DNA from: Candidatus Micrarchaeia archaeon
GTDB taxonomy: Archaea > Micrarchaeota > Micrarchaeia > Burarchaeales > JACRGF01
Assembly (NCBI GenBank): GCA_038870455.1
Contig: JAWCPB010000006.1
Span: 1-40,287 of the forward strand
Length of the DNA: 40,287 bases
Reading direction: 5' to 3'
Shown here: piece by piece, positions 25,941 through 40,287 of the stretch
Layout: each line of letters begins with the position of its first letter
Numbering within the stretch: position 1 is the first letter of the stretch
The notes under the pieces: model-generated
The model's input: the letters and a program-made list of their open reading frames with translations, nothing else
The model's database searches: none
What the model was told of the DNA's origin: nothing
Program-made: the position numbers and the translations under genes

Positions 25941-27194
25941 GTGTTGAAAGCGGTTGTTCTCGCGGCTGGGGAGGGAAAGAGGCTGCGGCCCCTGACCTAC
26001 ACGAGGCCCAAGTGCATGATTCACCTGGCGGGCAAGCCCGTTCTCGAGCACGTGCTGCTGGCGCTCAAGGGAGCGGGCGTGAAGGAAGCCGTCGTGGTGG
26101 TCAAGTACCTCGAGGATGTCGTCAGGAAATACTTCGGTGACGGAAGGAAGCTGGGGATGAGGCTGCGTTTCGTCACGCAGGGAGAGGAGTACGGCACGGC
26201 CGCGGCTTTCCTGTGCGCCAAAGAACTTGTTGAGGACGAGCCGTTCATCGGCATGGCGGGCGACGTCATAACTGAAGCCGGCTTTGTCAAAAGGCTCGTG
26301 AGGGAGCACGACGGCGAGGCGATCACGATGGGGCTCAAGGCGGTGCGGGAGCCGGGCGAGTACGGCGTGGCCGAGCTGCGGGGAAGCCGCGTGGTGGCTT
26401 TCGAGGAAAAGCCAGCCTCTCCGAGAAGCAACCTCGTGAACGCCAGCGTGTACGTGTTCGAGCCCAAGGTGTTTCCCGTCCTTGAAAAGCTGCAGCCCAC
26501 TTCCAGAGGCGAGGTGGAGGTAACCGATGCGGTGAGGGAGCTGTGCGGAAGGGGGGAAGTGAAGGGCGTGGCGGGCGAGGAGTACTGGCTTGACATGGGC
26601 ATGCCCTGGCACCTTTTCGACGCCAACGAGTTCCTGCTCGGAAGGTTGCGGGCGAGAGCCGGAAAGGTCGAGAATTCGACCGTGAAGGGAAAACTCATCA
26701 TGGAAAAGGGCGCGGTCATACACAATTCCTATGTAGAAGGAACGGTTTATGTCGGCGCGGACACTTCGGTTGGGCCCCACGCATTCCTCAGGGGAACGAC
26801 GAGCATCGGGCGGGAATGCGACATAGGCGATTCGACAACGGTGAAGAACAGCATAATCTTCGACAGGGTGAACGCCAAGCACCTGACCTACATCGGCGAC
26901 AGCATCATAGGCGAGGGATGTAACTTCGGCGCGGGCACCCAGATAGCCAACTTTCGCTTCGACGAGGCGCCGGTGAAGGCGGAGGTGGAGGGGCGCGTGA
27001 TGGACACCATGCGCACAAAGCTCGGTGCGATGATAGGCGACGAGGTCAAGACGGGTGTGCTGTCCTGCATCATGCCCGGAAAGCTCGTGGGCGACCACTC
27101 CTGGATAGGCGCGGGCGTTGTCGTGGAGCAGAACATCCCAAGGCAGACCGCCGTATTCGCGGAGCAGAAGCTCGTTTTCAAGAAGAGGGAGTGA
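25941..27194 (+). CDS. glmU: Archaeal bifunctional sugar-1-phosphate nucleotidylyltransferase/acetyltransferase (GlmU-like)
   Basis: LAAGEGKRLRPLT...PK, EKP, left-handed beta-helix repeats, HLTYIGDSIIG, NFGAGT..AN.RFD. Confidence 0.9.
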   Translation: MLKAVVLAAGEGKRLRPLTYTRPKCMIHLAGKPVLEHVLLALKGAGVKEAVVVVKYLEDVVRKYFGDGRKLGMRLRFVTQGEEYGTAAAFLCAKELVEDEPFIGMAGDVITEAGFVKRLVREHDGEAITMGLKAVREPGEYGVAELRGSRVVAFEEKPASPRSNLVNASVYVFEPKVFPVLEKLQPTSRGEVEVTDAVRELCGRGEVKGVAGEEYWLDMGMPWHLFDANEFLLGRLRARAGKVENSTVKGKLIMEKGAVIHNSYVEGTVYVGADTSVGPHAFLRGTTSIGRECDIGDSTTVKNSIIFDRVNAKHLTYIGDSIIGEGCNFGAGTQIANFRFDEAPVKAEVEGRVMDTMRTKLGAMIGDEVKTGVLSCIMPGKLVGDHSWIGAGVVVEQNIPRQTAVFAEQKLVFKKRE

Positions 27195-27198
27195 GCGG

Positions 27199-28029
27199 TT
27201 GAAGCTGATTGTTGGAATAGACCCCGGCGCAACGGTCGGCGTGGCCGCACTGGACTTGAGCGGCCGCCTGGTGGCACTCGCCAGCGGGCGCGGGTGGGGA
27301 AAAGAGGAAATAGTCGAACGGATCCGGGCGGTCGGCTCACCCGCCATCTTTGCCTGTGATGTACGCTCCCCGCCCGACCTTCTGCTCAGGCTCGCCGGCT
27401 CTTTCAACGCCCACCTCTACGCTCCTGAGAAGGATTTGAGGGAAGAGGAGAAGAGGGAGCTCGCGGGGGGAACGCCATGCGCGAACGAGCACGAGATGGA
27501 CGCGCTGGCGGCCGCGAAAAAAGCCTTTCACTCTGTGGAGAACAAGCTGAGGCAGGTCGCCAAGGCGCTCACCGAAGAAGGCCTGGAGGCTGAGGAAGAG
27601 TTCGCCAAAAGTCTCGTGCTGGCCGGAACAAGCCTCAGCAACGTGCTCGCTCTGCTCAAGGCGCGGAGGCTGGCTGTGATGGTGCGAGCCGGTGAAGCCA
27701 CTCCGGAAAAGAAGCGGAGTGTCGAAGAGGAGGTCGAGCGGCTCGCCGCCGAACTCGAGGCCGCTCTTCAGGCGAACGCCGAGCTCAGGAAGAGGACGGA
27801 GAGGCTCGCCGCCCAGCTGGCTTCGGCGAGGGAGGAGGCCGAGAGGGCGCGCTCGGGCATGACCGAAAGGCTACGCAGGGAGGCCGAGCTGCTGAAGAGG
27901 GAGGCAGAGATAAGGAGGCTCAGGAGGACCATCGCGGGGTTGCGGAGAAAGGAGTTTTTAAAAAGATTGGGAAAGAAAAAAACTGCGCCTGACTTGGAGA
28001 AAATCATCAGCGAATACCGCAGGGACTGA
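27199..28029 (+). CDS. DUF460-family protein (RNase H-like N-terminus plus coiled coil)
   Basis: [35 protein letters not shown]-terminal heptads. TTG start at 27199. Confidence 0.8.
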
Positions 28030-28043
28030 AGGGAGGTGGGAAC

Positions 28044-28346
28044 ATGGAAGGGCAGGAGAAAAAGACAAAGGAGGGCCAGGGGGAGAACGCCATTTACATA
28101 GGCAAGAAGGGTGTGATGAGCTATGTCTTGGCAGTCGTGACGCAGTTCAACAATAACGCCAGCGAGGTGTCGATCAGGGCCAGGGGGAAGGTCATTTCAA
28201 GGGCTGTTGATGTGGCCGAGATAGTCCGGAACCGCTTTGTTCCGGAGGCCAAGGTCAAGGCCATCAACATCTCCACTGACGAGCTGACTAACGAGGACGG
28301 CACGAAGAGCAAGGTCTCGGCGATTGAGATCGTCCTCTCCAAGTAG
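28044..28346 (+). CDS. albA: Chromatin protein Alba
   Basis: [39 protein letters not shown]. Confidence 0.96.
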
Positions 28347-28367
28347 CATTCTTTCCCGGGTGGGGTT

Positions 28368-28865
28368 TTGAAGCTGCCGATTTGCGAGCTATGCGCATCC
28401 ACAAGCGTTCTGTGCTCAGGCTGCAGCGAGCGCCTAGCTGAGGGCAGGCTCACCCAGCTTGATGTGGATGCCAGCAGGCTCCTCCACCGCCTCGCGGCTG
28501 ACCACCCGCTCGAGAACATCGAGCTCAAGCGCGCGCTTGACCTCGGCAAGGTCGTGCTGCTTCTTGTGAGGGGCGACGTGGGTGCGCTCATCGGCAGGGA
28601 AGGCAGGGTCGTGAATGAGATTTCAAAGGGGCTGGGAAAAAAGGTGCGCATAGCAGAGGACGCCGGCGACCTGAAGAAGATGCTGGCCGACATCGTCTCG
28701 CCCGCGCGCGTGCTCGGCATAAACCAGGTTTTCAAGAGAGAAGGCACCGCGTTCAGAATACGCATTCCGAAAGCAGACATCCCCTCGCTTCCCGTGCCGC
28801 TGAGCGTGCTCGAGAAGGCGCTTGCCAGCCTGTTCAGCGCGCCCGCGGAAATTTTTTTCGAGTGA
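28368..28865 (+). CDS. NusA-like KH-domain protein with N-terminal Zn-binding Cys cluster
   Basis: PICELC...LCSGC and KH GxxG motif LIGREG...LGKKVRI. Confidence 0.75.
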   Translation: MKLPICELCASTSVLCSGCSERLAEGRLTQLDVDASRLLHRLAADHPLENIELKRALDLGKVVLLLVRGDVGALIGREGRVVNEISKGLGKKVRIAEDAGDLKKMLADIVSPARVLGINQVFKREGTAFRIRIPKADIPSLPVPLSVLEKALASLFSAPAEIFFE

Positions 28866-28870
28866 TTGTC

Positions 28871-30166
28871 ATGCTCAGAACACACTATGCCAGCGAGGTC
28901 AAGCCCGACATGGCCGGCAGGCCGGTCACCCTGGCAGGCTGGGTGCATGAGATCCGTGACTTGGGCAAGCTCAAGTTTCTTGTTCTCAGGGACCGGAGCG
29001 GTCTCATTCAGGTCACGGCAAAGGCGGGTGAGGTCGAGCAGGATGTGCTGCGCGCATTCAAGCTCGTAAAGGAAACTGTCGTGCAGGTCGAGGGGCTGGT
29101 CAGGAAGGAAAAGCAGGCGCCCGGAGGCCGTGAGGTTATTCCGTCGCGCATCACCGTCATCGGGCCGGTCACCCAGCCCATTCCGTTCGAGGTGACCGGC
29201 AAGGTGCCCGCGGACATTGACGTGAGGCTTGACAACAGGCACATTGACCTGCGCAGGCTCGAGTCGCAGGCCATCTTCAGGATAAAGGCCGAGCTGCAGT
29301 GGGCTTTCAGGGAGGGGCTGAGGGCCAAGGGCTTTCAGGAAATCATTCCCACTTGCATCGCAGCGGCGGCAACCGAAGGCGGAACAAACCTGTTTCCGGT
29401 CGTGTATTTTGAGAAAGAGGCTTTTCTCGTGCAGTCCCCGCAGCTGTACAAGCAGATGGCCGTGGTGGGTGGCATGGACAAGGTGTTCATGACCGTTCCA
29501 GTCTTCCGCGCGGAGCCGCACAACACGACAACCCACCTCAACGAAGTGTACCAGATGGACATAGAGATGGGCTTCGCCGACCACAACGACGTCATGGACA
29601 TCCTGTCGGACATTCTCATCTACATGCTGAAGAGCGCAAAGAAAAACTGCGCCGAAGACCTCGCCCTGCTGGGCGCCGAAGCACGCATCCCGCGGGAAGT
29701 AAAGCGCCACACCTACTCTTCGCTCGTCGAGCTGCTGCAGAAGAACGGCGTGAGCATAGAGTGGGGCGAGGACTTCTCGCGCGAGCACGAAAAGAGGATA
29801 GTCGAGCTGCTGAACGAAGAGGCTTACCTCATCACCGACTGGCCCACCAAAGTACGCGCGTTCTATTCCATGCCAAAGGAGGATAACCCAGAGATGTGCA
29901 ACGCTTTTGACCTCATGTACAGGGGCCTCGAGATAGCAAGCGGAGCGCAGCGGATTCACATACCGGAGTTGCTTGAAAAACAGCTACGCGCGCGCGGCCT
30001 CAACCCAGCGAACTTCGAGTTCTACATACGCGCCTTCCGCATGGGCGCGCCGCCGCACGCGGGCTGGAGCATCGGCCTCGAGCGGCTTGCCATGAAGCTC
30101 TGCGGCCTGTCCAACATCCGCGAGGCAGCGTTGTTTCCAAGGGACAGGAACAGGATAACGCCGTGA
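28871..30166 (+). CDS. aspS: Aspartyl-tRNA synthetase, archaeal type (probably non-discriminating)
   Basis: GWVHEIRDLG, QAPGG, QSPQLYKQ, FRAE, GAQRIH, PPHAG...GLER, FPRD. GTG at 28862 is an alternative start. Confidence 0.95.
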   Translation: MLRTHYASEVKPDMAGRPVTLAGWVHEIRDLGKLKFLVLRDRSGLIQVTAKAGEVEQDVLRAFKLVKETVVQVEGLVRKEKQAPGGREVIPSRITVIGPVTQPIPFEVTGKVPADIDVRLDNRHIDLRRLESQAIFRIKAELQWAFREGLRAKGFQEIIPTCIAAAATEGGTNLFPVVYFEKEAFLVQSPQLYKQMAVVGGMDKVFMTVPVFRAEPHNTTTHLNEVYQMDIEMGFADHNDVMDILSDILIYMLKSAKKNCAEDLALLGAEARIPREVKRHTYSSLVELLQKNGVSIEWGEDFSREHEKRIVELLNEEAYLITDWPTKVRAFYSMPKEDNPEMCNAFDLMYRGLEIASGAQRIHIPELLEKQLRARGLNPANFEFYIRAFRMGAPPHAGWSIGLERLAMKLCGLSNIREAALFPRDRNRITP

Positions 30167-30170
30167 GTCG

Positions 30171-30308
30171 ATGGGCGGAATGAACAGGATGCCCAGGAAC
30201 CCGTCTTTGGAAGAGAGGATGAAGTGGCATCTCGCGCACGCGAAAAACTGTTCCTGCAGGCCGATTCCCAAGAAACTGCTTTCTGAAATGAAGAAGAGGC
30301 GGCGTTAG
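30171..30308 (+). CDS. Small His/Cys protein (45 aa)
   Basis: MGGMNRMPRNPSLEERMKWHLAHAKNCSCRPIPKKLLSEMKKRRR fills the gap after aspS; WHxxHxxxCxC motif. Below the ORF-track cutoff. Confidence 0.6.
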   Translation: MGGMNRMPRNPSLEERMKWHLAHAKNCSCRPIPKKLLSEMKKRRR

Positions 30309-30310
30309 CC

Positions 30311-30886
30311 TCAAGCAGGAGGAGGCACGAGTTCTTTCGGAAGCTCGGCGTACTCGGCTTTTCTTTCTCCTTTGTAGAAGATGAGCGCGGTCTCGACTAT
30401 CGCCACGATGACTCCAACGAAAACGAACACGAGCGCGCCGATGAGTAGCGGCAGCAGCGCGGCCGCGACCGGCACGAGGCGGTTCTCCTCCTTTCTCGCG
30501 GCAAAGCCGGCGAGGCCAGAGAAAAGCACGAGCAGAATCCACATGGCGTCGCAGACGACCACGAGGTTGCCGAGCGCCGCCGCGTCAGCCAGGCCGGCGC
30601 ACCCGCTCTTGGGGCCGAACGCCAGGAAGTTCGCCGCCTCCGTAATCGGGACGATGCAGTTTCCGGCAGTGCAGTAGCCCTCCCTGCAGTCCGCGGTCAC
30701 GCTGCACGGCGAGCCCACCGCGTACCTCGTCACGGCAGGGTTGATGCACGTCCCCGTCTCGTTCGAGCAGTAGCCAAGCGAGCAGTCGAGCGTGTAGTTG
30801 CATGGCTCGCCCACTCCGGAAAGCGCGGGTGAGGAAGAGGATAACGCCAGGAAGAGCGCGCCGATGGCCAGCAGGGCTTTCCTCAT
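30311..30886 (-). CDS. Secreted-domain membrane protein with two Cys-rich repeats
   Basis: Signal peptide MRKALLAIGALFLALS; repeats GEPCNYTLDCSLGYC...GTCI and GSPCSVTADCREGYC..GNCI; about 3 C-terminal TM helices. Confidence 0.75.
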   Translation of the reverse strand: MRKALLAIGALFLALSSSSPALSGVGEPCNYTLDCSLGYCSNETGTCINPAVTRYAVGSPCSVTADCREGYCTAGNCIVPITEAANFLAFGPKSGCAGLADAAALGNLVVVCDAMWILLVLFSGLAGFAARKEENRLVPVAAALLPLLIGALVFVFVGVIVAIVETALIFYKGERKAEYAELPKELVPPPA

Positions 30887-30909
30887 CCAAAGACTTTCCC
30901 GACGGATAT

Positions 30910-31449
30910 TTAAAAGCCTTTTGTGGCTCGTCTCGCCAACTCACCGCTCCAGCTCACCCAGCCGGCCCTGAAGCGGCCTCCTTTTCCTTTGAGTATTTCG
31001 GCAACCGATTTTTCCACGTTTTTTCCGGTCGTATCCACTTCGAAGACGCGCCCGTGTTTCTCCGTCGCGAGAATGGTGGCATAGTCGAGCGCCTCGGCGA
31101 GAGTGTTTTCGTTAACTTTCTTTTTGGCATACCCTCTTGCTTTCAGTCTCTTCTCCAAAACCCGCGGGTGCGTCCTCGTCACAATCACCAAATCAACCGG
31201 AAGCCTCATCTCGCACCCAAGGTGGCCTTCCACGACAGCGTTTTTCTCCCGCCTCAGCAGGCGCGCGAGCTCCTTCTCGAGCGGCTTCATCCTCGCCACG
31301 AGCGTGCCGCCCCGCTCAATCCTCGAATACAGTTTTTTCTCCCTCACCAGCTCGTTTATGGAAATCAGCCTCGCCCCCAGCCTCCTCGCGATGAATGGCG
31401 CGAGCGAGCTCTTTCCTGTTCCCGGCACCCCTGTAACCAGCACGCGCAT
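30910..31449 (-). CDS. Adenylate kinase, AK6/Fap7 family
   Basis: VTGVPGTGKS, VVEGHL, L.KRL..RGY...KV.EN..AE, EVDTT. ATG at 31449. Confidence 0.9.
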   Translation of the reverse strand: MRVLVTGVPGTGKSSLAPFIARRLGARLISINELVREKKLYSRIERGGTLVARMKPLEKELARLLRREKNAVVEGHLGCEMRLPVDLVIVTRTHPRVLEKRLKARGYAKKKVNENTLAEALDYATILATEKHGRVFEVDTTGKNVEKSVAEILKGKGGRFRAGWVSWSGELARRATKGF

Positions 31450-31480
31450 GGATTTAAAATGCCGCAGAAGGAATAAGAGC

Positions 31481-32305
31481 ATGCGCCTTCCTGCGGTTGC
31501 CGGGCAGTTCTATCATGCTGACGCGCGCGCTCTTGCGAGGGACATTGACGGCATGCTCGCGGGGGCGGGCGCTTCGAAGGCGAGAGGGCTCGCCGCGCTC
31601 GTGTGCCCGCACGCGGGCCACATTTACTCGGGAGGCATCGCCGCGCATTCCTTCGCCGCGCTCCAGGCCGCTTTTCCCTCGCCCCCTTCACTCGTTCTCG
31701 TGGGCCCGAACCACACGGGCGCGGGCTCGCCCGTGGCCCTGTCGCTGCAGGACTGGCAGACTCCGCTCGGGATTGCCAGGAACGACAGCGAGCTTGGAAA
31801 AGCGGTTGCAAAAGCCGGAAACACGATTGACTTTGACGAGGAGGCGCACCGCTTTGAGCACTCGCTCGAAGTGCAGCTTCCCTTCCTCCAGCGCATCTAT
31901 CCCGCCGGCTTCAGCTTTGTCCCCATCTGCATCGGCGCGCAGGGGCTTGACAGCGCGCGCGATGTCGCGCTGGCGGTCGCCAAGGCCGCGATGGCGCTGA
32001 AGAGGAATGTCGTCCTCATCGCCTCGAGCGACTTCACCCACTACGAGCCCGCGGAGGAAGCAAAGAAAAAGGACGGTCGCGCGCTTGAAAAAATACTCGC
32101 CCTCGACTCGGCCGGCTTTGTCGCGCTGGTGGAGCGCGAGCGCCTGTCCATCTGCGGCTACGGCCCCGTGGCCTGCGCGATCGAGTACGCCAAACTACGC
32201 GGGTGTGGAAAGGGCGTTATCCTCAAGTACGGCAACAGCGGCGATGCGAGCGGCGACTACTCCTCTGTCGTCGCCTACGCAAGTATTATATTCGCGGAAG
32301 GGTGA
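31481..32305 (+). CDS. MEMO1 family protein (AmmeMemoRadiSam protein B)
   Basis: RLPAVAGQFY, PHAGHIYSG, GPNHTG, EHSLEVQLPFLQ, ASSDFTHY, CGYGP. Confidence 0.92.
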   Translation: MRLPAVAGQFYHADARALARDIDGMLAGAGASKARGLAALVCPHAGHIYSGGIAAHSFAALQAAFPSPPSLVLVGPNHTGAGSPVALSLQDWQTPLGIARNDSELGKAVAKAGNTIDFDEEAHRFEHSLEVQLPFLQRIYPAGFSFVPICIGAQGLDSARDVALAVAKAAMALKRNVVLIASSDFTHYEPAEEAKKKDGRALEKILALDSAGFVALVERERLSICGYGPVACAIEYAKLRGCGKGVILKYGNSGDASGDYSSVVAYASIIFAEG

Positions 32306-32313
32306 AGAAGGGC

Positions 32314-33375
32314 ATGGCAGGCCGCACACCGGACAGGAAGGGCGCGCACGTGAGGATTTCGCTGGAGGAGAGGGTGGAGTCGCGCTCGCCGGCCGGCTTT
32401 GACGACGTGAGGCTCCTTCACAACCCCCTTCCCGAGCTGGGGCTCGGCGACATTGAGCTTGGTGTGCGCTTTCTGGGAAAGCGGCTGGCCGCACCCCTCG
32501 TCATCACGGCCATGACGGGCGGTTTCAAGCAAGCCGGCAAAATAAACAAGGAGATCGCGGCTGCTGCCGAAGCCGAGGGAATAGCGTTCGGCCTCGGCTC
32601 GCAGAGGGCGATGATCGAGCAGCCGTCGCTGGCCGGAACCTATTACGTCCGGGACGCTGCGCCCAAGACGCTCGTCCTCGGGAACATCGGCGCTGCGCAG
32701 CTCAAGGAATTCCCGCTGGAGAAAATCGAGTGGGCTGTGGCAAAGTCTGAAGTCGATGCGCTCGCCATTCACCTCAACCCTCTTCAGGAAGCTGTTCAGA
32801 GGGAAGGCGATAAGGACTTCGGCGGCTGCCTCAAGGTCATCGAGCGCGCTTGCGAGAAGCTCAGCATTCCGGTCATCGCGAAGGAAACGGGCGCGGGAAT
32901 ACCCGCTGAGGCCGCGCTGCGCCTGCAGGAGGCTGGCGTCAAAGCCGTCGACGTCTCCGGCTTGGGCGGGACATCATGGGCCCTTGTGGAGGGCTATCGT
33001 TCGCCGCACATCACGGGCTTCGACGACTGGGGAATTCCCACTGTGGTGTGCATCGCAGAAGCCGCGCGCGCGCTCGTCATTCCGGTCATCGGCTCGGGCG
33101 GAGTGCGCAGCGGCCTTGACGCCGCCAAGTGCATCGCGCTCGGAGCCGCGCTAGCGGGCGCCAGCCTCCCCTTCCTCAAGGCGTGGAACAAGGGAGGAGC
33201 GGAGGGCGTTCGCTCGCTCGCCGGCTTGTGGAAGAGGCAGCTGCGGACGGCCATGCTGCTCACCGGAAGCAGGGACTTGGAGGGCCTCCGCAAGACCAGG
33301 GTGCTGGTTTCCGGAAAGAGCGCCGAGCTCCTGCGCGCGAGGGGAATAGAGCCGAGGGAGTACGGAATGCGCTGA
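32314..33375 (+). CDS. fni: Type 2 isopentenyl-diphosphate delta-isomerase
   Basis: RKGAH, AMTGG, GSQR, HLNPLQE, KETGAG, GGTSW, SGGVRSG. ATG at 32314. Confidence 0.95.
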   Translation: MAGRTPDRKGAHVRISLEERVESRSPAGFDDVRLLHNPLPELGLGDIELGVRFLGKRLAAPLVITAMTGGFKQAGKINKEIAAAAEAEGIAFGLGSQRAMIEQPSLAGTYYVRDAAPKTLVLGNIGAAQLKEFPLEKIEWAVAKSEVDALAIHLNPLQEAVQREGDKDFGGCLKVIERACEKLSIPVIAKETGAGIPAEAALRLQEAGVKAVDVSGLGGTSWALVEGYRSPHITGFDDWGIPTVVCIAEAARALVIPVIGSGGVRSGLDAAKCIALGAALAGASLPFLKAWNKGGAEGVRSLAGLWKRQLRTAMLLTGSRDLEGLRKTRVLVSGKSAELLRARGIEPREYGMR

Positions 33376-33388
33376 AGCGCGTGATTGA

Positions 33389-35080
33389 ATGCTTTCAAGG
33401 GAGCTTGTTCTCAAACACGCGCTCAAGAACGCGGGCGATTACGGGAAGGCGGACGTGAAGGCTGTCGCGGGCAAGGTGCTCGCCGAAGCGCCGGAGGCGA
33501 AGAAAGACGTGAAGGCCGCGATGGCCCTTATTTCCGAAGTCGTTGCCGAAGTCAATGCCCTGCCGAGGGAAGAGATCGAGAGCAGGCTCTCGGCCTTCGC
33601 CTTTGCTGAGAAAAAGGAGGAGGCGAAAGGAATCGTTCTCCCGCACGCGGAGAAGGGAAGGGTCGTCACGCGCTTTCCCCCAGAGCCCAACGGCTGGCCT
33701 CACATAGGCCACGCCAAAGCCGCTTTCCTTGATTACGAGGCCGCGCGAGCCTACGGCGGGAGGTTCCTGGTGCGTTTCGACGACACGAACCCCGAAGCAG
33801 AAAAACAAGAGTACGCGGACGCGATCATTGAGGGCCTGCGCTGGCTGGGCATAACCTGGGATGAGCCCATAGCATACGCCAGCGATTCCCTGCCTTCTCT
33901 GTACGAGCATGCGAAAAAATTGATCGCGCAGGGCGACGCGTACGTCTGCGCCTGCCCTCCTGAAGAAATAAGAAAAAACCGCGCGGCCGGAAGGGCGTGC
34001 GCCTGCAGGCGCGCAGGCGCAGAGCACATCGACCTCTTCAACGACCTTCTCTCGGGTAAATTCGCCGAAGGCGAGGCCGTGGTGCGCTTCAAGTGTGACC
34101 TCAAAAGCCTCAACACGGCCATGCGCGACCCCACGCTCTTCCGCATCGTGGAAGCGCCGCACTACAGGCAGGGAAAGAAGTACAGGGTTTGGCCCTCCTA
34201 CGACTTCGAGGCGCCCATAATGGATTCCCTGCAGGGCATAACGCACGCCATGAGGACGAAGGAGTACGAGCTGCGTGACGAGCTTTATGTTTCGCTGCTT
34301 CAGAAACTCGGCCTCCGCATCCCGGTCATCGTGGAGTTCAGCCGCCTTTCTCTGCTGGGCTTTCCCGTCAGCAAACGCCTCCTCAAGCCTCTCGTTGAGG
34401 AAAGGAGGGTGAGCGGCTGGGACGACCCGCGCCTGCCCACGCTCGCCGGCCTGCGCAGGCGAGGCATCCAGCCCGAGGCCATCCGCCGCTTTGTGCTGGC
34501 CTTTGGCTTGGGCAAGACCGAGAGCGAGCCTACGATAGAGGCGCTGCTGGCTGAAAACAAGAAAATACTCGATCCGATCTCGCCGCGCTATTTCTTTGTT
34601 CCGGAGCCGGTAAGGCTAGTTGTGAAAAACGCGCCTGTCCTCATCGCCGAGCTCAAGAAGCATCCGAGCGCGGAGCTCGGCGTAAGGAAAGCCGCCACCC
34701 GCGGCGAGTTCTTCATTCCCAGAAGCGATGCGGCCGAGCTCAAGCCGGGCGAGGTTTTCCGCCTCAAGGACCTTTACAACGTCAGGGTGGTTTCGGTGAG
34801 CGAGAAAGAGGTGAAAGGCGAGTTCGCTGGCAGGGAGCTCACCGAGGGAAGCAGGAAACTCCAGTGGGTCAGCGAGCCGCTTGACTGCACTGTCCTTGTT
34901 CCCAACGAGCTGTTTGTTGGCGACAGATTCAACGAGAAAAGCCTTGAGGAAATAAATGGGGTGTGCGAGCGCGCGGCAGGCGAGCTCAAGCCCGGCGACA
35001 TCATTCAGTTCGAGAGGTTCGGCTTCTGCAAGCTCGAGGAAAAGAAAAAAAAGCTCACCTTCATCTACACAAACCCGTAA
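33389..35080 (+). CDS. gltX: Glutamyl-tRNA synthetase, archaeal type
   Basis: TRFPPEPNGWPHIGH, RFDDTNP, WPSYDF, VSKR, GWDDPRLPT...RRRG, QFERFGF. Confidence 0.95.
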   Translation: MLSRELVLKHALKNAGDYGKADVKAVAGKVLAEAPEAKKDVKAAMALISEVVAEVNALPREEIESRLSAFAFAEKKEEAKGIVLPHAEKGRVVTRFPPEPNGWPHIGHAKAAFLDYEAARAYGGRFLVRFDDTNPEAEKQEYADAIIEGLRWLGITWDEPIAYASDSLPSLYEHAKKLIAQGDAYVCACPPEEIRKNRAAGRACACRRAGAEHIDLFNDLLSGKFAEGEAVVRFKCDLKSLNTAMRDPTLFRIVEAPHYRQGKKYRVWPSYDFEAPIMDSLQGITHAMRTKEYELRDELYVSLLQKLGLRIPVIVEFSRLSLLGFPVSKRLLKPLVEERRVSGWDDPRLPTLAGLRRRGIQPEAIRRFVLAFGLGKTESEPTIEALLAENKKILDPISPRYFFVPEPVRLVVKNAPVLIAELKKHPSAELGVRKAATRGEFFIPRSDAAELKPGEVFRLKDLYNVRVVSVSEKEVKGEFAGRELTEGSRKLQWVSEPLDCTVLVPNELFVGDRFNEKSLEEINGVCERAAGELKPGDIIQFERFGFCKLEEKKKKLTFIYTNP

Positions 35081-36361
35081 CTATTTTTTCCTGGCTGCTT
35101 TTTCCAGCGCCTTCACTCTCGCGTCCAGATCGACGATGAGCGTCTCGAGCGCTTCCCTCGCCTCTGCCAGCTCCCTTGCGGTTCTTGCGGAGTCCTTCTG
35201 CACCGCCTCCAGCTTTCGGCCCATCTCCTCCCCTTCCTTCATGCTCTTCTGGATTTTTTCCTCGAGCTCCTCGAACTTCTCGTGAAGCTCTTTCTCGAAG
35301 TCAGCGAACTTTCCAACGGACTCGAGCAGCAGCTTCGCCCCCTCCTCGATCTTCTTCTCATTGTCCTCCATTCTCTTCTTCAGCTGCGAGCCCGCCGCGT
35401 CGAGCCTGCCCAGCGACTTTGCCACGCCAGCAACTTCCTTGGCCAGCGCCGCTCGCTGCCCCCGCATCTCCTCCAGCTCGCGCTGGAGCTCGGCAAAGAG
35501 TTTTTTCTCCTCCCCCTCGATTCTTTCTATCTCTTCCTTGAATTTCTTCAGCTCGGCGAGCGCTCTGGCCATTTCGACAAGTTTTTCCTCGCTGCTTTTC
35601 TTCAGCTCGGCTAGGTCCTCCCTCTGAACAACGCCCTCCACGCGCGCCTTCACCTTCTCCGCGTCTTTCGCGAGCGTCTTCAGCGCGCCCTCGGCGGCAT
35701 CCATCCTCTCGAACAGCGCCTGGATGTCCTTGGCCTTCTTCTGCAGCTCGACATAAACGAACTCCACTTTGTCCGCGTGCTTTTCGATGGTCGCCTCAAC
35801 TTCTTTTATGCCGGCCAGCTCCTTTCTCACCTCGTCGCTGAGCTCGACAACCGTGTCGAGGCCCCTGAAGGCCACGAGCCTGCCCTTGACCTCCTTGAGC
35901 TCGTCGGTTGTCGCCCTCTGCACGGCCTCGAGCCGCTCGAGCGCCCCCCTGCCCTCCTCTATCCTCGCCTCGAGCCTCTTCACTTCCTCAAGCAGCTTTT
36001 CGGGCTGCACGCTCGCAACCAGGTCGGCCGCCCTCTCCGCCTTCTCAGCAAGCTCCCTCTCCCTCTTCTCCGCCTCGAGCATGCCCTGCTTGAGCTCGCC
36101 GATTTCCTCGCTGAGCTTGGCGAGCCTCTCGTCGATGGGCCCGCGCATTTCCCTGAGCGCCTGAATCTGCGCCTTCAGGCTCTCGAGCTGCACCTCGAGC
36201 TCCGCCCCGCCCGCCGGCCTCGCCGCTGGCGGCGCCTCCGCTACCTCACCGGCGTACTTTTCCTCGCTCGAGACCATCTCAACCTCTTCCTTGGCGAACT
36301 CTTCTTCCTCGCCGGCCTTTTTTCTCCCCAACAAGCCGAGTATGTCTTCAAGCAAGCCCAT
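35081..36361 (-). CDS. Long coiled-coil protein (426 aa) with amphipathic N-terminus
   Basis: E/K/L/A-rich heptads over about 370 aa, no TM segment or ATPase motif. Starts 4 nt after the stop of the giant ATPase-fusion gene. Confidence 0.85.
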   Translation of the reverse strand: MGLLEDILGLLGRKKAGEEEEFAKEEVEMVSSEEKYAGEVAEAPPAARPAGGAELEVQLESLKAQIQALREMRGPIDERLAKLSEEIGELKQGMLEAEKRERELAEKAERAADLVASVQPEKLLEEVKRLEARIEEGRGALERLEAVQRATTDELKEVKGRLVAFRGLDTVVELSDEVRKELAGIKEVEATIEKHADKVEFVYVELQKKAKDIQALFERMDAAEGALKTLAKDAEKVKARVEGVVQREDLAELKKSSEEKLVEMARALAELKKFKEEIERIEGEEKKLFAELQRELEEMRGQRAALAKEVAGVAKSLGRLDAAGSQLKKRMEDNEKKIEEGAKLLLESVGKFADFEKELHEKFEELEEKIQKSMKEGEEMGRKLEAVQKDSARTARELAEAREALETLIVDLDARVKALEKAARKK

Positions 36362-36365
36362 GCCA

Positions 36366-39300
36366 TCAGCCCTTCGAGGCGGCCACCCCGTACAGGTGTT
36401 CCTTCTCGAGTTTTTCGATCCTCTTGTTCAGCGACTCCATATAAATATCCACCACATTGAACGCCCCTTGCTTGAGCTTGTTCCTGGCCAGCCCAACCTC
36501 GAGCTCAACATCGAACACATCCACTTTCTTCTGCTTGAGCGCCTCCACCCTGGCCGCGAGCATCTCGAGCTGGACGTTGTACTTCTCGTAGGTCTCGAGC
36601 TCTTTGTCCGAAAGGCGGACCACGCTGTGCTGCAGCGGCCTGAATGCCGCGAAATAGGGCCTGCCGTTGTTGTACTCCGGATTTTGTATCATGCCTGTTC
36701 CCACCGTCGCCCTAGCTATCGAGCGCATGGTGTCCTCGCCGTACTTGAGCTTCATCCTCTCGAGGTCGCCCTCGTACTTCGTCCTCATCTGAATCTCTGT
36801 CCCGATGTTCGCCTTTATCTCCCCGACAACATCGGACAGCACCTGCGAGACGAGCACGAGGCCAACGCCCCATTTCCTGAACTCGCGCGCTCCCCTCTCG
36901 AGCTCAAGTATGCCTTCCCCGCGCGCGCCGAACTTGGGGAGAATGCGGTGCACCTCGTCATAGACAATCAGGAGGCGCAGCCGCTGGCTCTCCTCGAGCT
37001 GCGCCGCGAAAACCTGCCTTATCGTGCCGGCATAGAACTTCTCAAGCTCGTCAGTGCTCATTCCGGCAACAGTGAAGATGGTTATCTCGCCGGGGTTCAT
37101 GTACTTCTTGATGTCAATGAGCATGTCGCCGCTTGTCACGTGGTGAATGTTTCCGTTGAAAGCCCTCGCCTCCTCGAGTTTCATGCCGAATTTTCTGTAG
37201 AGAGCCAGCATTTCCTTGTTCTTGTTGGACCTGAGGAAGCCCGTCCATTGCTTGGTGGGGTCGAACACGATTACGGCAATGCCTCTCTTCAGCGCCTCCT
37301 CGACAATCACTTGGGCTGCAACGGTTTTGCCCGAGCCTGTCGCGCCTGCCACGAGCGTGTGCACTGTTAGCTTGTCCAGGTCCATGAAAGCCCTGACTTC
37401 AGTCTCGGCAATCTTTCCTATGAACGCACTGCGCTCTCCGGGCGCAGGCAGTTTTGTGAAGTCAATCATCTCCAGATACCTCTTTCTCCTCGCCGCCTCC
37501 ATCTTCTGCCTGACATAATACGCCGAGCCTCCGCCTGTCGCCAACAGCATGGCGAGAATGGCCCACACGGGCACTCCCGCGATGGTCACCATGAGCGGGT
37601 TGACCTCTACTATGATGGGCACTGTGTAAACTGCCTCCCTGCTCCTGTTCGCCTCTGCTGTGTAGCGCACTACGCCCCTGACCGAGTACCTGCCCGCCGG
37701 AATGTCCGACGGCATTTTCAGCTGCCCAACAATGTGTGCCGGCGTGTCGCCCATGAGCTCGAGCGTCCTCTCGGCATACACCTCCTCGGTCGTCGGGTTG
37801 ATGAACCGCAGGATGAGGTCGCGCAGGAATACCTTGTCGAACGAGCTCGTCATGGTGATGTCTATCTTGAGCGTCTCGCCCGGGCCTATCCTGTCGGTGA
37901 GAGGCTGGAACGTCCACACGAGCTGCCTCTCCTTGAGCTCGAGCACCCTCACCGAGGCGGGAATGCCAACGGTCGTCTCTTCGGTCTGGAGGATGACGCC
38001 TCCAGAGTATATGCCTGCGCTCGCGTCCTGCGGTGTCCTCACCGTGAATAGCAGGTTCGCCTCCTCGCCCGGGCCCAGCTGCACCCTCGTCTTCTCGAAC
38101 AACAGGAACCTCGCCACCTCACCGGTTGCGCTGACGCGCACCAGCCGCGGCTCTGACAGCGCGTTCCTGACGGGAACCACTCCGATCGTTTTTTCTCCGG
38201 GATAAAGCTCGAAGAACAGGCTCTGAATCTGCATTTGCAGGCTTATCGTCCTGTTCAGCAGGGCGAGCAGGCCCGCCTGCGCGAGCGTGGCATTGCCGAG
38301 GCTTTCCTGCAGCCGGCCGATCTCCTCAATGATCCTCGCCGTGTCCTCCGCCTCAGGCGGCCTGGTCAGCATGCTGGTGATGTTCGACGCGAATGAGGCG
38401 AACTCCTCGGGCGTCACGCCTCCGGAGGGAGCCACCGTGACTCCTCCCCCTGCTCTCTGCACCACGGTTGGGACTGGGCAGTCCTGCGGGCAGTTCGAGG
38501 ATGACTCGCCGCGGCTGCCCTCGCACACCCCGTTTCCGCAGATGAACTCGGCCGCCGCATAGCCGGACAGCGCGGTCAGGTTTGCAGAGATTATTTTCGT
38601 GAATGGGTTGACGCTGACACCATCGAGCCTCTGCCAGACCGCACTGCACGAGCGGTTTGCAAAACTCCAGTCGCCGCACCTGTACAGGCCGATGTTCGCC
38701 TCTGACTGGTAGCTTGCGCCCGAGTAGTTCAGCACGAGCGAAATGTTGCTCGAGCTCAATCCTGCCAGCAGCTCCACTGACAGCGCGCGCAGCCTCACCC
38801 CACCAAGCCCAACGAAGGTAACGGGAATTGCGTCAAACCTCAGCGGGTCAACCACATCCGTGGTCAGGCTGACGTTCCTGAAGGTGAGCGTGGCGTTCAA
38901 CGTATCAACAGCGAGCGTGACGTAGTTCGGCGACGGCACGACTTCGCTGTAGTAGCCGGTGGATGCATTGGACGAAAAGTTGGCCAGAAGCTGCAGCGTG
39001 TTCGCCGAGTAGACTGTGATGCCCGCCGCCAGCGGGTTTGCCTCAGCATCCCTGAGCGTGCCCATGAACAGCACCGGAACATAAACGATGACCGCGCCGG
39101 TCGTGCTCCTTACGTTTCCCGTGGTGTCGTTGAGCGTGTAGGTGACGTTGTAATCCCCTCTCGGCTGGGGAGGCAGCGTGGCGTTCCAAGTGAAGTTGTC
39201 GGTTGTGGAAAGATAGTAAGTCGTGCCAGCAAGCGTCACCGAAACATTCTCCACCTGCGCATTATCGGTGGCGTTCACCTCCATGTACGCGCCGGTTCCA

Positions 39301-40287
39301 GTCAACACCATGACGGGATGCAGCAGGCCCGTGATGTTCGGCGGCGTGATGTCCCTGTAACAAAGGCTCGGGCCGCTCACGTTGAACAGGAAAGTGTCAT
39401 TGTTCGGGCTCGTGTAGTTCGTCTCGACGACGAGCGGATGGCACAGCGCATCGGGCGCCGCCGGCGCCCTGAAGCTTGCAAGAGTGAGATTGCCCGCGAG
39501 CGTGATGTTAATAATCTCCGCCTCCAGCCCGGCGACAAAGAGCCTGTAGGTTGCATTCTCTGTTATGAGCGGGCCCCCGAGGTTGATGCTCCAGTTCGCC
39601 TGAATCGAGTCGTTGGCAATGATGTTCGTGCTGGGCGCAATGCTGGCGTTGAGCCTTGGCGCCAGCACGAAGGTGACGTTGTTGCTCTGGTTCGCGGTGA
39701 TTGTCGTCTCGTTGCTTCCCACCCAGCTCCTGTTCGCGCTGACGAAGTGCGGCGTGAGGATTGTCGCGCTGTCGTTGTTCTCAGTCTGGTTCTCTATTAC
39801 GAAGTACGGGTAGGCCCATCCCGTGTCGTTCGTCGAAATGTTGTTGTCCAGCTCGTAATCAACCGGAGCCGTAACTCCGAGGCTGAGGGGGTCGCTCCAC
39901 ATCGTCATGTTGTAGCCCCCCACGTTCCCAAACGCGTCAGCCACATTCACGCTCGCGTTCGCCACATCGCTTCCGTTGGCATCTATCGTGTGCACCCCAA
40001 GCAGCCACGCCCAGGCAACCTTTGCCAAGTCGTTTGCCCCAACCACGGTTTCGTTTATGCTCACATTCCTCGAGTCTATGAGCAGCACGCCCCAGTCGGT
40101 GTTGTTGTTTATGTTGTTGTCGTCTGTTATCACAGCGCTCGAGAGAAAGGCGGCCACGCCCGCCCTGCTGTTGAAGCGAATTGTGTTGTTGGCCAGCGTG
40201 GCGTTGGTGGAGTTGTACGCGCCTGCGCCGAACCTGTTGTATTCGAGGGTATTGCCGGAGAGGAGCGAGTCGTTCGAGCTTATCACC
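36366..40287 (-). CDS. Giant surface protein (beta-helix, Ig-like and Cys-motif ectodomain) + TM helix + C-terminal HerA/VirB4/FtsK-like ATPase; 5' end outside the window
   Basis: Uninterrupted frame of at least 1306 aa. PbH1-like Asn repeats, many N-x-S/T sequons, CGNGVCE...NCPQDC, TM segment (VTIAGVPVWAILAMLLATGGGSAYYV), Walker A GATGSGKT, VFDPT, Walker B IVYDEVH, REFRKWGVGLVLVSQ. Confidence 0.88.
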   Translation of the reverse strand, partial: VISSNDSLLSGNTLEYNRFGAGAYNSTNATLANNTIRFNSRAGVAAFLSSAVITDDNNINNNTDWGVLLIDSRNVSINETVVGANDLAKVAWAWLLGVHTIDANGSDVANASVNVADAFGNVGGYNMTMWSDPLSLGVTAPVDYELDNNISTNDTGWAYPYFVIENQTENNDSATILTPHFVSANRSWVGSNETTITANQSNNVTFVLAPRLNASIAPSTNIIANDSIQANWSINLGGPLITENATYRLFVAGLEAEIINITLAGNLTLASFRAPAAPDALCHPLVVETNYTSPNNDTFLFNVSGPSLCYRDITPPNITGLLHPVMVLTGTGAYMEVNATDNAQVENVSVTLAGTTYYLSTTDNFTWNATLPPQPRGDYNVTYTLNDTTGNVRSTTGAVIVYVPVLFMGTLRDAEANPLAAGITVYSANTLQLLANFSSNASTGYYSEVVPSPNYVTLAVDTLNATLTFRNVSLTTDVVDPLRFDAIPVTFVGLGGVRLRALSVELLAGLSSSNISLVLNYSGASYQSEANIGLYRCGDWSFANRSCSAVWQRLDGVSVNPFTKIISANLTALSGYAAAEFICGNGVCEGSRGESSSNCPQDCPVPTVVQRAGGGVTVAPSGGVTPEEFASFASNITSMLTRPPEAEDTARIIEEIGRLQESLGNATLAQAGLLALLNRTISLQMQIQSLFFELYPGEKTIGVVPVRNALSEPRLVRVSATGEVARFLLFEKTRVQLGPGEEANLLFTVRTPQDASAGIYSGGVILQTEETTVGIPASVRVLELKERQLVWTFQPLTDRIGPGETLKIDITMTSSFDKVFLRDLILRFINPTTEEVYAERTLELMGDTPAHIVGQLKMPSDIPAGRYSVRGVVRYTAEANRSREAVYTVPIIVEVNPLMVTIAGVPVWAILAMLLATGGGSAYYVRQKMEAARRKRYLEMIDFTKLPAPGERSAFIGKIAETEVRAFMDLDKLTVHTLVAGATGSGKTVAAQVIVEEALKRGIAVIVFDPTKQWTGFLRSNKNKEMLALYRKFGMKLEEARAFNGNIHHVTSGDMLIDIKKYMNPGEITIFTVAGMSTDELEKFYAGTIRQVFAAQLEESQRLRLLIVYDEVHRILPKFGARGEGILELERGAREFRKWGVGLVLVSQVLSDVVGEIKANIGTEIQMRTKYEGDLERMKLKYGEDTMRSIARATVGTGMIQNPEYNNGRPYFAAFRPLQHSVVRLSDKELETYEKYNVQLEMLAARVEALKQKKVDVFDVELEVGLARNKLKQGAFNVVDIYMESLNKRIEKLEKEHLYGVAASKG

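Follow-up and report, generated by a model that had tools for sequence, protein, structure and literature searches.

The window analyzed here, which is the entire contig C6 (40,287 nucleotides), ends within a gene that, judged from its sequence, almost certainly encodes one of the SPEARE-type "giant membrane-anchored extracellular proteins" of DPANN archaea, here truncated on the 5' side and probably micrarchaeal. Its product probably works at host contacts as a membrane-tethered, oligomeric translocase, whose cargo is more likely DNA than protein.

Table 1. Coordinates of the SPEARE-type gene, its encoded features and the adjoining partner gene.
Feature	Position	Strand	Basis or remark
SPEARE-type adhesin-ATPase gene, cut at its 5' side by the contig end	36366..40286	-	Open frame; hundreds of homologues of the same architecture
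Parallel beta-helix repeats (residues 1-114)	39945..40286	-	Pfam Beta_helix and NosD
Sequon-rich module of the ectodomain (residues 215-605), conserved also among the giant members of the family	38472..39644	-	BLASTP, sequon excess
Cys-rich motif CGNGVCEGSRGESSSNCPQDC (residues 583-603)	38478..38540	-	Read from translation
Putative helical stalk (residues 647-690)	38217..38348	-	Inferred from sequence only
Pair of Ig-like beta-sandwich domains next to the membrane (residues 690-895), family-wide conserved core	37602..38219	-	AlphaFold2, Foldseek
Single TM helix (residues 900-925)	37512..37589	-	Hydropathy; model helix 218-251
ARRKRY, after the TM helix	37476-37493	-	Translation
Cytoplasmic HerA-clade P-loop ATPase core	36615..37508	-	Pfam DUF87 and HerA_C, PDB profile, VIA-align, Foldseek
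Walker A GATGSGKT	37323-37346	-	Translation
IVFDPT	37254-37271	-	Translation
Walker B LLIVYDEVHR	36945-36974	-	Translation
Arg-finger/sensor motif REFRKWGVGLVLVSQ	36843-36887	-	Translation
C-terminal three-helix bundle (residues 1225-1300)	36387..36614	-	AlphaFold2 model
E/K-rich coiled-coil partner gene, 426 aa	35081..36361	-	4 nt past the ATPase stop codon; homologues downstream elsewhere

Membership in the SPEARE Family

The gene is a single open frame of 1306 codons that runs past the contig end at its 5' side. A segment on another contig (C24:350..3, reverse strand) that includes a signal-peptide-like stretch is a candidate for its 5' end, the two ties to the gene being synteny and weak similarity.

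In the part of Hamm et al. (2019; PMC6642349) drawn on here, SPEARE proteins are described as having a lengthy extracytoplasmic portion, followed near the C-terminus by a TM domain, and a conserved cytoplasmic region. Micrarchaeota are stated there to hold similar sequences, and the SPEARE matches listed are PSG99524.1, PSG99792.1, and RLG14629.1. The ATPase encoded in the window matches all three, with identities of 49% (E 2.7e-114), 48% (E 1.2e-113), and 58% (E 3.2e-141), respectively. The excerpted text of Reva et al. (2023; PMC10266531) describes an ectodomain, a TM segment, a "VirB4/TraG-like ATPase" and a coiled coil "at the tip," and proposes a contact-plus-secretion device; between them the two papers label the motor either as a "type III restriction enzyme" domain or as "VirB4/TraG-like."

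A survey for the same fusion in other genomes returned hundreds of homologues with this architecture. At E <= 1e-3 there were 747 proteins of 718-2286 aa (7998 candidates scored) and 215 of 2287-5000 aa (6090 candidates), and 370 representatives (50% identity) were found at E <= 1e-30. Of 250 homologues, 243 have a hydrophobic 19-mer at a distance of 40-130 aa (median 77 aa) on the N-terminal side of Walker A. The preliminary description knew of no characterised system with this architecture. That claim to novelty fails because the motor falls in an already described fusion family, the outcome which it had itself named as telling against it; the SPEARE family has been described, though not biochemically characterised. 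Its idea of attachment combined with DNA or protein transfer is essentially equal to the published hypotheses for SPEARE.

Ectodomain and Topology

The N-to-C order proposed beforehand (beta-helix, sequon-rich ectodomain, Cys motif, two Ig-like domains, TM helix with RRKR, P-loop ATPase) was recovered in our analyses, and the positions given for Walker A, Walker B, the Cys motif and the TM helix agree with those recomputed. One element was not confirmed, as the "PGF-pre-PGF-like domain" placed at ~38550-38810 had no NCBIfam match at E <= 0.1. The visible ectodomain has only beta-helix and weak Ig-type Pfam matches, with Beta_helix covering residues 3-114 (E 3e-9) and NosD covering residues 3-83 (E 2.9e-5); a full-length relative, P0122, has eight Beta_helix stretches. 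SPEARE ectodomains are described, in the portion of Hamm et al. (2019; PMC6642349) used here, as carrying one or more laminin-G domains together with several adhesion domains. No Pfam match to laminin-G or protease-like domains was found in the ~900 visible ectodomain residues, the N-terminal part lying beyond the contig end.

The sequon-rich module has 25-35% identity (BLASTP) to stretches situated ~640-1200 residues before the C termini of giant homologues, and these alignments stop at the Cys-rich motif. The Ig-like pair, whose Foldseek matches are tandem Ig-like domains, aligns with short family forms starting at about residue 55. In the AlphaFold2 model covering residues 690-1306 (mean pLDDT 81), a pair of beta-sandwich domains is followed by a single long helix, the ATPase and helices at the C-terminus.

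The gene product is a type I membrane protein, with the ectodomain outside and the ATPase inside. Supporting the N-out/C-in topology originally suggested, there is only one hydrophobic peak (residues 898-916), RRKR follows the helix, and all 46 N-X-S/T sequons are N-terminal to the peak, with none in the 381 residues C-terminal to it. Residues 1-600 hold 42 sequons vs. 12.3 +/- 3.0 expected (1000 shuffles). The ectodomain is glycosylated and adhesin-like, and varies by lineage.

The ATPase Motor

Based on its motifs, the motor is a catalytically complete HerA-clade ATPase of the FtsK-HerA superfamily. Pfam scores passed the cut-offs for the DUF87/HerA central domain (residues 955-1012; 48 bits vs. 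23.2) and HerA_C (34 vs. 22), TrwB_AAD_bind passed marginally (22.2 vs. 20.5) and FtsK_SpoIIIE fell short (21.3 vs. 24). HerA 4d2i was the best match in the PDB profile search (E 9.6e-8), and 16 HerA chain rows top the Foldseek ranking. By VIA-align, HerA 4d2i (Z 18.4) and the DndH C-terminal domain (7es4; Z 18.1, rmsd 3.4) each aligned over 223 residues, followed by VirB4 4ag5 (Z 15.8), TrwB (Z 13.7), DotL (Z 11.9), and FtsK 2ius (Z 11.6). The motor is therefore nearest to HerA and DndH by sequence and fold, with VirB4 and TrwB ranked below. Fold alone does not settle whether the cargo is DNA or protein, because VirB4 is only 2.6 Z units under HerA.

Walker A, Walker B and REFRKWG are invariant in alignments of 22 and of 34 family members, and the pre-Walker-A hairpin and sensor motifs show the strict conservation seen in HerA. 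Since REFRKWG is a HerA-type trans-arginine motif and invariant across the family, an oligomeric ring is a reasonable expectation. In the AlphaFold2 model there is no HAS barrel, as the TM helix runs straight into the pre-Walker-A hairpin; the C-terminal bundle is formed by model helices 301-326, 332-346, and 350-371 (pLDDT ~90). The motor has no nuclease domain.

Assignment to narrower classes was considered and rejected. NCBIfam HerA equivalog models reached 18-29 bits vs. cut-offs of 800-970, and the features of HerA-NurA helicases extend to the core only, without the HAS barrel or NurA partner. VirB4_CagE reached 15.2 bits vs. 643 and TraD-type models 14-37 vs. 366-648, and CagE_TrbE_VirB, the VirB4 N-terminal domain, was not among the Pfam matches listed, so that VirB4/TraG/VirD4/TrwB membership was set aside. 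The Ced ATPase models were likewise not reached (CedD 38 bits vs. 600; CedB 15.4 vs. 700). FtsK/SpoIIIE membership fails at the Pfam cut-off, and a single TM helix is present vs. a multi-pass N-terminal membrane domain.

Partner Gene and Genomic Context

The ATPase gene is likely to be co-transcribed with the coiled-coil gene that follows it, because the gap between them is only 4 nt. Homologues of the partner (E 1e-8 to 3e-36 across residues 55-250) are present downstream of the ATPase gene at 6 of 9 evaluable loci and at 6 of 9 further loci (12/18); the protein matches no Pfam family over the cut-off. No conserved polytopic membrane protein gene adjoins the ATPase gene in the loci examined, no NurA, SIR2 or DUF4297 partner is beside it, other T4SS components were not seen among its immediate neighbours, and the stretch examined showed no dnd context. 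At woesearchaeal loci a separate PKD/Ig/cadherin surface-protein gene is immediately upstream of a short-ectodomain ATPase gene, an arrangement that links adhesin and motor by fusion or fission. Elsewhere in the genome there are a separate soluble DUF87/AAA_10/TraG-P-loop ATPase (contig C3) and a separate canonical HerA-like ORF (contig C41).

Two alternative functions bear on these observations. Type IV secretion-like export, in which a VirB4/TraG-type motor would inject protein effectors into the host through an ectodomain "straw," is proposed in the portion of Reva et al. (2023; PMC10266531) consulted, and is in our estimation improbable. The Z values of VirB4, TrwB, and DotL, the marginal TrwB_AAD_bind score and the soluble ATPase on contig C3 are consistent with it, but HerA is the top match by Pfam, PDB profile, Foldseek and VIA-align alike, and the VirB4_CagE and TraD-type scores are far under their cut-offs. 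In addition, the downstream gene encodes a coiled coil, unlike the VirB4/TraG-type ATPase gene reported downstream in two nanohaloarchaea (PMC10266531, in the same portion), and no further T4SS component was seen adjoining the gene.

A slightly less probable alternative is that nothing is transported, and that the ATPase ring acts on its own ectodomain, mechanically or as a regulator (stalk clustering, an inside-out adhesion switch, retraction or shedding control) with the coiled-coil partner as a cytoskeletal tether. This would accord with one TM helix per subunit, the lack of a conserved channel protein near the gene, conservation of the partner, and the finding of ectodomain and cytoplasmic portions in different gel size fractions, as given in the excerpt of Hamm et al. 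(2019; PMC6642349). The strict, HerA-like conservation of the pre-Walker-A hairpin and sensor motifs argues against it. Also counted against it is that characterised FtsK-HerA superfamily members are known to work by threading a polymer through a ring.

Distribution

The gene is present in 10 of 151 genomes sampled from its own phylum and in 30 of 151 from a second phylum, and was not found in a same-genus genome (G039, 95% complete) or in a same-family genome (89% complete). Relative to the same-genus genome it is within an indel of at least 7.4 kb, adjoining a VapBC pair. Some genomes of the two phylum samples have several copies, and ectodomains are highly variable across homologues. The module thus has the patchy, indel-borne occurrence of an accessory gene rather than that of a housekeeping gene; together with the woesearchaeal adhesin neighbour, its patchiness, non-detection in G039 and VapBC-adjoining position are counted as accessory, host-interaction-like behaviour.

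This distribution makes it very unlikely that the protein is a housekeeping FtsK/SpoIIIE-like segregation or division translocase with an incidental surface domain. In favour of that reading are the membrane anchor, membership in the FtsK-HerA superfamily and the fold match to FtsK 2ius. It is already disfavoured: the sub-threshold FtsK_SpoIIIE score, the patchy occurrence, the non-detection in close relatives, the indel with its toxin-antitoxin pair, and the multiple copies with variable ectodomains all oppose it. A misassembly joining ectodomain to ATPase can be dismissed for practical purposes: the contig does terminate within the gene, and 39734-40287 splits into short, loose-ended unitigs of depth up to 22 vs. 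~8.5 elsewhere, but contigs from three runs of one study span the TM junction (X1 record 2, 37385-39776; X2 record 10, 37263-37606; X3 record 14, 37382-37578), the junction recurs in 243/250 homologues, and homologue alignments cross it without interruption.

Proposed Mechanism

The best explanation overall, which we hold with slightly better than even confidence, is a SPEARE-type, membrane-tethered ring translocase at host contacts. The trans-acting arginine requirement would have the ATPase work as a ring, probably a hexamer, whose N-terminal face would be held to the membrane by the TM helices at the position of HerA's HAS barrel. Ring formation would bundle several ectodomain stalks at the contact with the host cell, and ATP hydrolysis would thread a polymer toward or away from the membrane. 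Whether polymer is translocated at host contacts at all we regard as evenly balanced; if it is, DNA would be favoured somewhat over protein, because the closest structural relatives, HerA and DndH, are parts of DNA-handling systems.

Several points are counted against this translocase reading. A pore that could admit DNA is unlikely to arise from six single TM helices, and with no polytopic neighbour conserved in the loci examined the membrane conduit is left without explanation. The split of ectodomain and cytoplasmic portions between size fractions, in the excerpt of PMC6642349, could represent cleavage and hence uncoupling of adhesin from motor. The HAS barrel that defines HerA is missing, as is a NurA partner, and VirB4's close Z value means that the fold by itself does not decide between DNA and protein cargo.

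More tentatively, the motor and its coiled-coil partner may together form the core of an archaeal machine, so far undescribed, for contact-dependent transfer of DNA (or protein), distinct from Ced and type IV secretion, that has adhesin, anchor and ring translocase in one polypeptide and moves between DPANN genomes as an accessory island; we consider this possible but doubtful.

SPEARE-type proteins are the most conspicuous candidates for host attachment and macromolecule uptake in DPANN archaea. As one more example this gene is of limited value, but comparison across the family sharpens what merits testing. Added to the published SPEARE work are the motor class, the conserved coiled-coil partner, the patchy indel-borne distribution and the candidate 5' end on C24. 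A HerA-/DndH-like motor, neither a restriction enzyme nor a clear VirB4, points to a DNA substrate.

Comparison with Known Systems

Like the protein described here, TrwB/VirD4, VirB4, FtsK/SpoIIIE, EssC/EccC, and CedB/CedD carry their ring ATPase behind an N-terminal membrane anchor (fold Z 11.5-15.8), and the ring axis of the motor should be normal to the membrane, as in these membrane-anchored FtsK-HerA translocases. It differs from them in that a single TM helix follows a very large ectodomain and no partner channel protein was found nearby.

HerA (in HerA-NurA, SIR2-HerA, and DUF4297-HerA) shares the RecA-like core, the pre-Walker-A hairpin, Walker A and B, and the REGRK-type arginine motif, but has a HAS barrel where the SPEARE-type motor has its TM helix. 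HerA systems also have a NurA, SIR2 or DUF4297 partner, whereas the SPEARE-type gene is without any. The DndH C-terminal domain (7es4) is as good a fold match as HerA, although no sequence-level match was reported. We know of no comparable ectodomain or TM anchor in DndH.

The closest likeness is to SPEARE itself, which in the excerpts of Hamm et al. (2019) and Reva et al. (2023) is built on the same plan of a Sec-type ectodomain carrying adhesion domains, one TM helix close to the C-terminus, a conserved cytoplasmic P-loop domain and a helical tip. Published members run to thousands of residues and begin with a signal peptide, compared to the 1306 residues visible here up to the contig end; a coiled-coil gene replaces the downstream ATPase of the two nanohaloarchaea; and the motor, labelled "type III restriction enzyme" or "VirB4/TraG-like" in those excerpts, has HerA as its nearest relative here.

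Domain Organization and Topology

The adhesin-ATPase gene forms a single unbroken frame of 1306 codons (window 36366..40286, minus strand) that is open at the sequence end. Its genome, G000, comprises 1.04 Mb in 51 contigs, and because the window is the whole of one of these (C6) the gene lacks its 5' end. The preliminary description had proposed one continuous frame from adhesin to ATPase, with a single transmembrane (TM) helix followed by basic residues. Our analysis bears this out: the 1306 codons are without interruption, the re-derived coordinates of the Walker A, Walker B, REFRKWGVGLVLVSQ and Cys motifs and of the hydrophobic helix match exactly, and hydropathy analysis gave a sole peak, at residues 898-916, with ARRKRY after the helix. 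The PGF-pre-PGF-like domain reported at the same time found no match in NCBIfam at E ≤ 0.1, and the heptad stalk is putative, having been read from the sequence. An assembly artefact joining the ectodomain to the ATPase is excluded in practice, as DNA contigs from three runs of one study, labelled hot springs metagenome, independently span the ectodomain-TM-ATPase junction.

All 46 N-X-S/T sequons are N-terminal to the hydrophobic peak, with none in the 381 residues C-terminal to it; residues 1-600 contain 42, vs. 12.3 ± 3.0 in shuffles. The single peak and the one-sided sequons therefore support a predicted type I, N-out/C-in protein that would be N-glycosylated. Modelled with AlphaFold2, residues 690-1306 (mean pLDDT 81) form two beta-sandwich domains and a 34-residue helix, with the ATPase next and helices at the C terminus. 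Pfam identified no nuclease domain in the protein.

Features of the adhesin-ATPase gene, its partner gene and the contig C24 bearing the candidate 5' end (nucleotide positions refer to the window unless C24 is named)
Feature	Position	Strand	Details
Beta_helix	residues 3-114		Pfam E 3e-9
NosD	N-terminal end of visible protein		Pfam
DUF87/HerA central	near C terminus		Pfam 48 bits, cut-off 23.2
HerA_C	near C terminus		Pfam 34 bits, cut-off 22
ResIII	P-loop region only		weak Pfam match, E 6.3e-5
Cys motif	38478-38540	(-)	
Hydrophobic helix, then ARRKRY	37512-37589	(-)	
Walker A	37323-37346	(-)	
Walker B	36945-36974	(-)	
Motif REFRKWGVGLVLVSQ	36843-36887	(-)	
Partner gene	35081-36361	(-)	426 aa, E/K-rich coiled coil; start 4 nt past ATPase stop codon
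Candidate 5' ORF	C24:350..3	(-)	open at contig start; GTG start, TTTATATA box ~25 nt upstream
TrmB-type HTH regulator	C24:750-1442	(-)	upstream of candidate 5' end (L054)
PIN-domain VapC	C24:1503-1910	(-)	upstream of candidate 5' end (L054)
VapB antitoxin	C24:1873-2196	(-)	upstream of candidate 5' end (L054)

Membership of the SPEARE Family

The architecture had been thought uncharacterised and novel, a claim that did not survive comparison with the SPEARE proteins, the giant surface proteins of DPANN archaea in which this design is already published. Hamm et al. (2019; PMC6642349) describe these as mainly extracytoplasmic, report similar sequences in Woesearchaeota, Aenigmarchaeota, Micrarchaeota and Altiarchaeales, and name PSG99524.1, PSG99792.1 and RLG14629.1 as SPEARE matches. 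These three are homologs P0224 (49% identity to the window ATPase, E 2.7e-114), P0229 (48%, E 1.2e-113) and P0030 (58%, E 3.2e-141) in our set. The adhesin-ATPase gene is a new, truncated member of this published family, and this member is probably of micrarchaeal origin. In the re-annotation by Reva et al. (2023; PMC10266531), the region becomes a "VirB4/TraG-like ATPase" with a coiled coil after it. The word HerA is absent from the main text of both papers and from that of PMC13473441, and searches for literature on DUF87 or HerA/FtsK in DPANN/Nanoarchaeota returned nothing relevant by title or abstract.

Homologs and Distribution

Residues 900-1306 matched 747 of 7998 scored candidates among proteins of 718-2286 aa (E ≤ 1e-3), the best 119 besides the query itself having 52-64% identity, and, in the 2287-5000 aa range, 215 of 6090 candidates. 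When 1.84 billion representatives were scanned exhaustively, 370 reached E ≤ 1e-30. Named sources of homologs were Micrarchaeota, Altiarchaeota, Woesearchaeota, Pacearchaeota, Aenigmarchaeota, Nanoarchaeota and Nanohaloarchaeota. Just one of the strong contig matches has a non-DPANN label, the 2.3-kb contig L011 labelled Methanosarcinales (44% identity, E 3e-70), which may be mis-binned given its short length.

We fetched 322 homologs. A Walker A pattern was matched by 256, and of these 250 have at least 130 residues ahead of it. A hydrophobic 19-mer is situated 40-130 residues (median 77) N-terminal to Walker A in 243 of the 250, and the N terminus is hydrophobic in 158 of the 206 homologs beginning with M. 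The conserved core across the family corresponds to approximately residues 700-1291 and takes in both Ig-like domains together with the TM helix, ATPase and a helical tip; residues 215-605 are also common to the giant forms at 25-35% identity. Woesearchaeal loci with short-ectodomain ATPases have a separate PKD/Ig/cadherin surface-protein gene immediately upstream. The short woesearchaeal forms (e.g., P0048 and P0056) have an extra conserved C-terminal domain (columns ~850-930 of the family alignment, A1; consensus L.LK.G..V....EL.DAL..MDD..F..HVN..KN.FADW) that is absent from the window protein.

The gene is patchy in its distribution. In the sample of its own phylum it is present in 10 of 151 genomes (10 of the 134 that are ≥90% complete), all in four families, with no match in same-genus or same-family genomes. 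For the phylum to which a Woesearchaeota-labelled genome belongs, where completeness is not given, the count is 30 of 151. A genome of the same class, G086, has seven ATPase matches, several being half-length pieces in a 15-kb cluster (C1:780567-795227), and in another, G142 (C12:135259-136434), a match is within a 12,373-aa open frame carrying one in-frame TAA. Within G000, tblastn identified no second copy, there being weak matches only, to a HerA-like ORF on contig C41 and an ORF with a TraG P-loop on contig C3.

Class of the Motor

A PDB profile search with the motor, the C-terminal P-loop domain, ranked HerA 4d2i first (E 9.6e-8), ahead of IcmO/DotL (4e-3) and FtsK (0.12). Since Foldseek with the 617-residue model was swamped by Ig-domain matches, the ATPase was folded alone (mean pLDDT 82, pTM 0.81), whereupon 16 HerA chain rows preceded the first non-HerA entry. 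VIA-align comparison of this model with 48,161 chains gave HerA 4d2i (Z 18.4), DndH-C 7es4 (18.1), VirB4 4ag5 (15.8), other HerA chains (13.0-14.3), TrwB (13.7), DotL (11.9), FtsK (11.6) and EccC (11.5). The NCBIfam equivalogs were far from being reached: CedD scored 38 bits vs. 600, the HerA models 18-29 vs. 800-970, VirB4 15 vs. 643 and CedB 15 vs. 700. Because HerA leads both the profile and fold searches and no equivalog is approached, the motor appears, from sequence and model, to be a distinct family in the FtsK-HerA superfamily, closest to the HerA clade. G000 has a separate, canonical-looking HerA-like ORF of 508 aa (C41:1032-2555), so that here the surface-protein motor is a further, paralogous family.

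Coiled-Coil Partner Gene

Residues 55-250 of the partner match the product of a gene 3' of the ATPase gene in L001-L005 and L010 (E 1e-8 to 3e-36, composition-corrected BLAST), with no match in L007, L008, or L009. As four of the 13 DPANN loci in this first set end at the ATPase gene, the count is six of nine evaluable loci. In a second set of nine loci, all from the same phylum, a partner homolog is present in six: directly adjoining the ATPase gene in L040-L042 and within longer ORFs 2-3 kb away in L045, L046, and L048; none was found in L043, L044, or L047. Pfam gave the partner no named family above cut-off, the best match among PDB sequences was EsxB at only E 0.059, and the nearest Atlas clusters (0.92-0.94) are unnamed DPANN proteins. 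Complex prediction for the ATPase (380 aa) with partner residues 1-260 scored 0.00 in both runs, which has no bearing either way.

The Missing 5' End

A search of all other contig ends for a k-mer overlap of 20-55 nt with the end of C6 found none. Terminal ORFs encoding signal peptides on C39 and C31 had no link to C6 and were dropped as 5' ends. A candidate on C24 came via synteny with G039, a genome of the same genus (80-83% nucleotide identity): the synteny covers window 26129 to 35087, ending where the Glx-tRNA synthetase gene ends, and the neighboring G039 DNA matches C24 from position 2186 on. Because synteny stops and resumes at these points, C24:1-2185, the gap and the window from 35088 to its end at 40287, together at least 7.4 kb, read as extra DNA in G000 relative to G039; blastn found no counterpart of C24:1-2196 at the syntenic position there. 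The product of the ORF at the C24 start has a signal-peptide-like segment, LLLSVAALLLLGC, and numerous sequons, and is weakly similar to three giant members of the family over residues 104-242 (E 2.5e-7 to 4e-5, 322-protein database); this ORF is probably the start of the adhesin-ATPase gene. The candidate signal peptide ends LLLGC, resembling a lipobox, and the N terminus could be lipid-anchored.

The last ~550 nt of the window (39734-40287) are represented by Logan unitigs in pieces of 53-219 nt, with summed depth up to 22 vs. ~8.5 elsewhere. Loose unitig ends are present at 39734 and 39862, and one 791-nt unitig extends beyond the window end. The contig break in the beta-helix region is probably due to a repeat or to strain variation, that is, co-existing variants.

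Proposed Mechanism and Comparison with Known Systems

We expect that the motor would work as an oligomeric ring, based on the invariance of the HerA-type arginine motif. Such a ring would be held to the membrane through its N-terminal face, would gather several ectodomain stalks on the outside, and would thread a polymer toward or away from the membrane. By analogy, DNA is the cargo we favor because of the affinity of the motor to HerA and DndH. The chief weakness of this proposal is that there is no evident membrane conduit. Reva et al. (2023) proposed a different cargo, effectors secreted through the SPEARE-type protein, with such proteins serving as secretion "straws." A rival to both is a mechanical role for the motor in which nothing is transported. 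A housekeeping FtsK-like role is disfavored, since it runs counter to the patchy distribution of the gene.

G000 also encodes a 522-aa soluble ATPase (C3:34934-36523; L049:6959-8524) in which DUF87, AAA_10 and TraG P-loop domains are present; its gene adjoins glycosyltransferase genes and unnamed genes, and may correspond to the VirB4/TraG-type gene adjoining nanohaloarchaeal SPEARE genes. The ResIII label given to SPEARE proteins is recovered in the window protein as a weak match to the P-loop, without a nuclease. HerA itself has NurA as its partner, whereas the window motor has no NurA partner, and where HerA has a HAS barrel the window motor has a TM helix instead.
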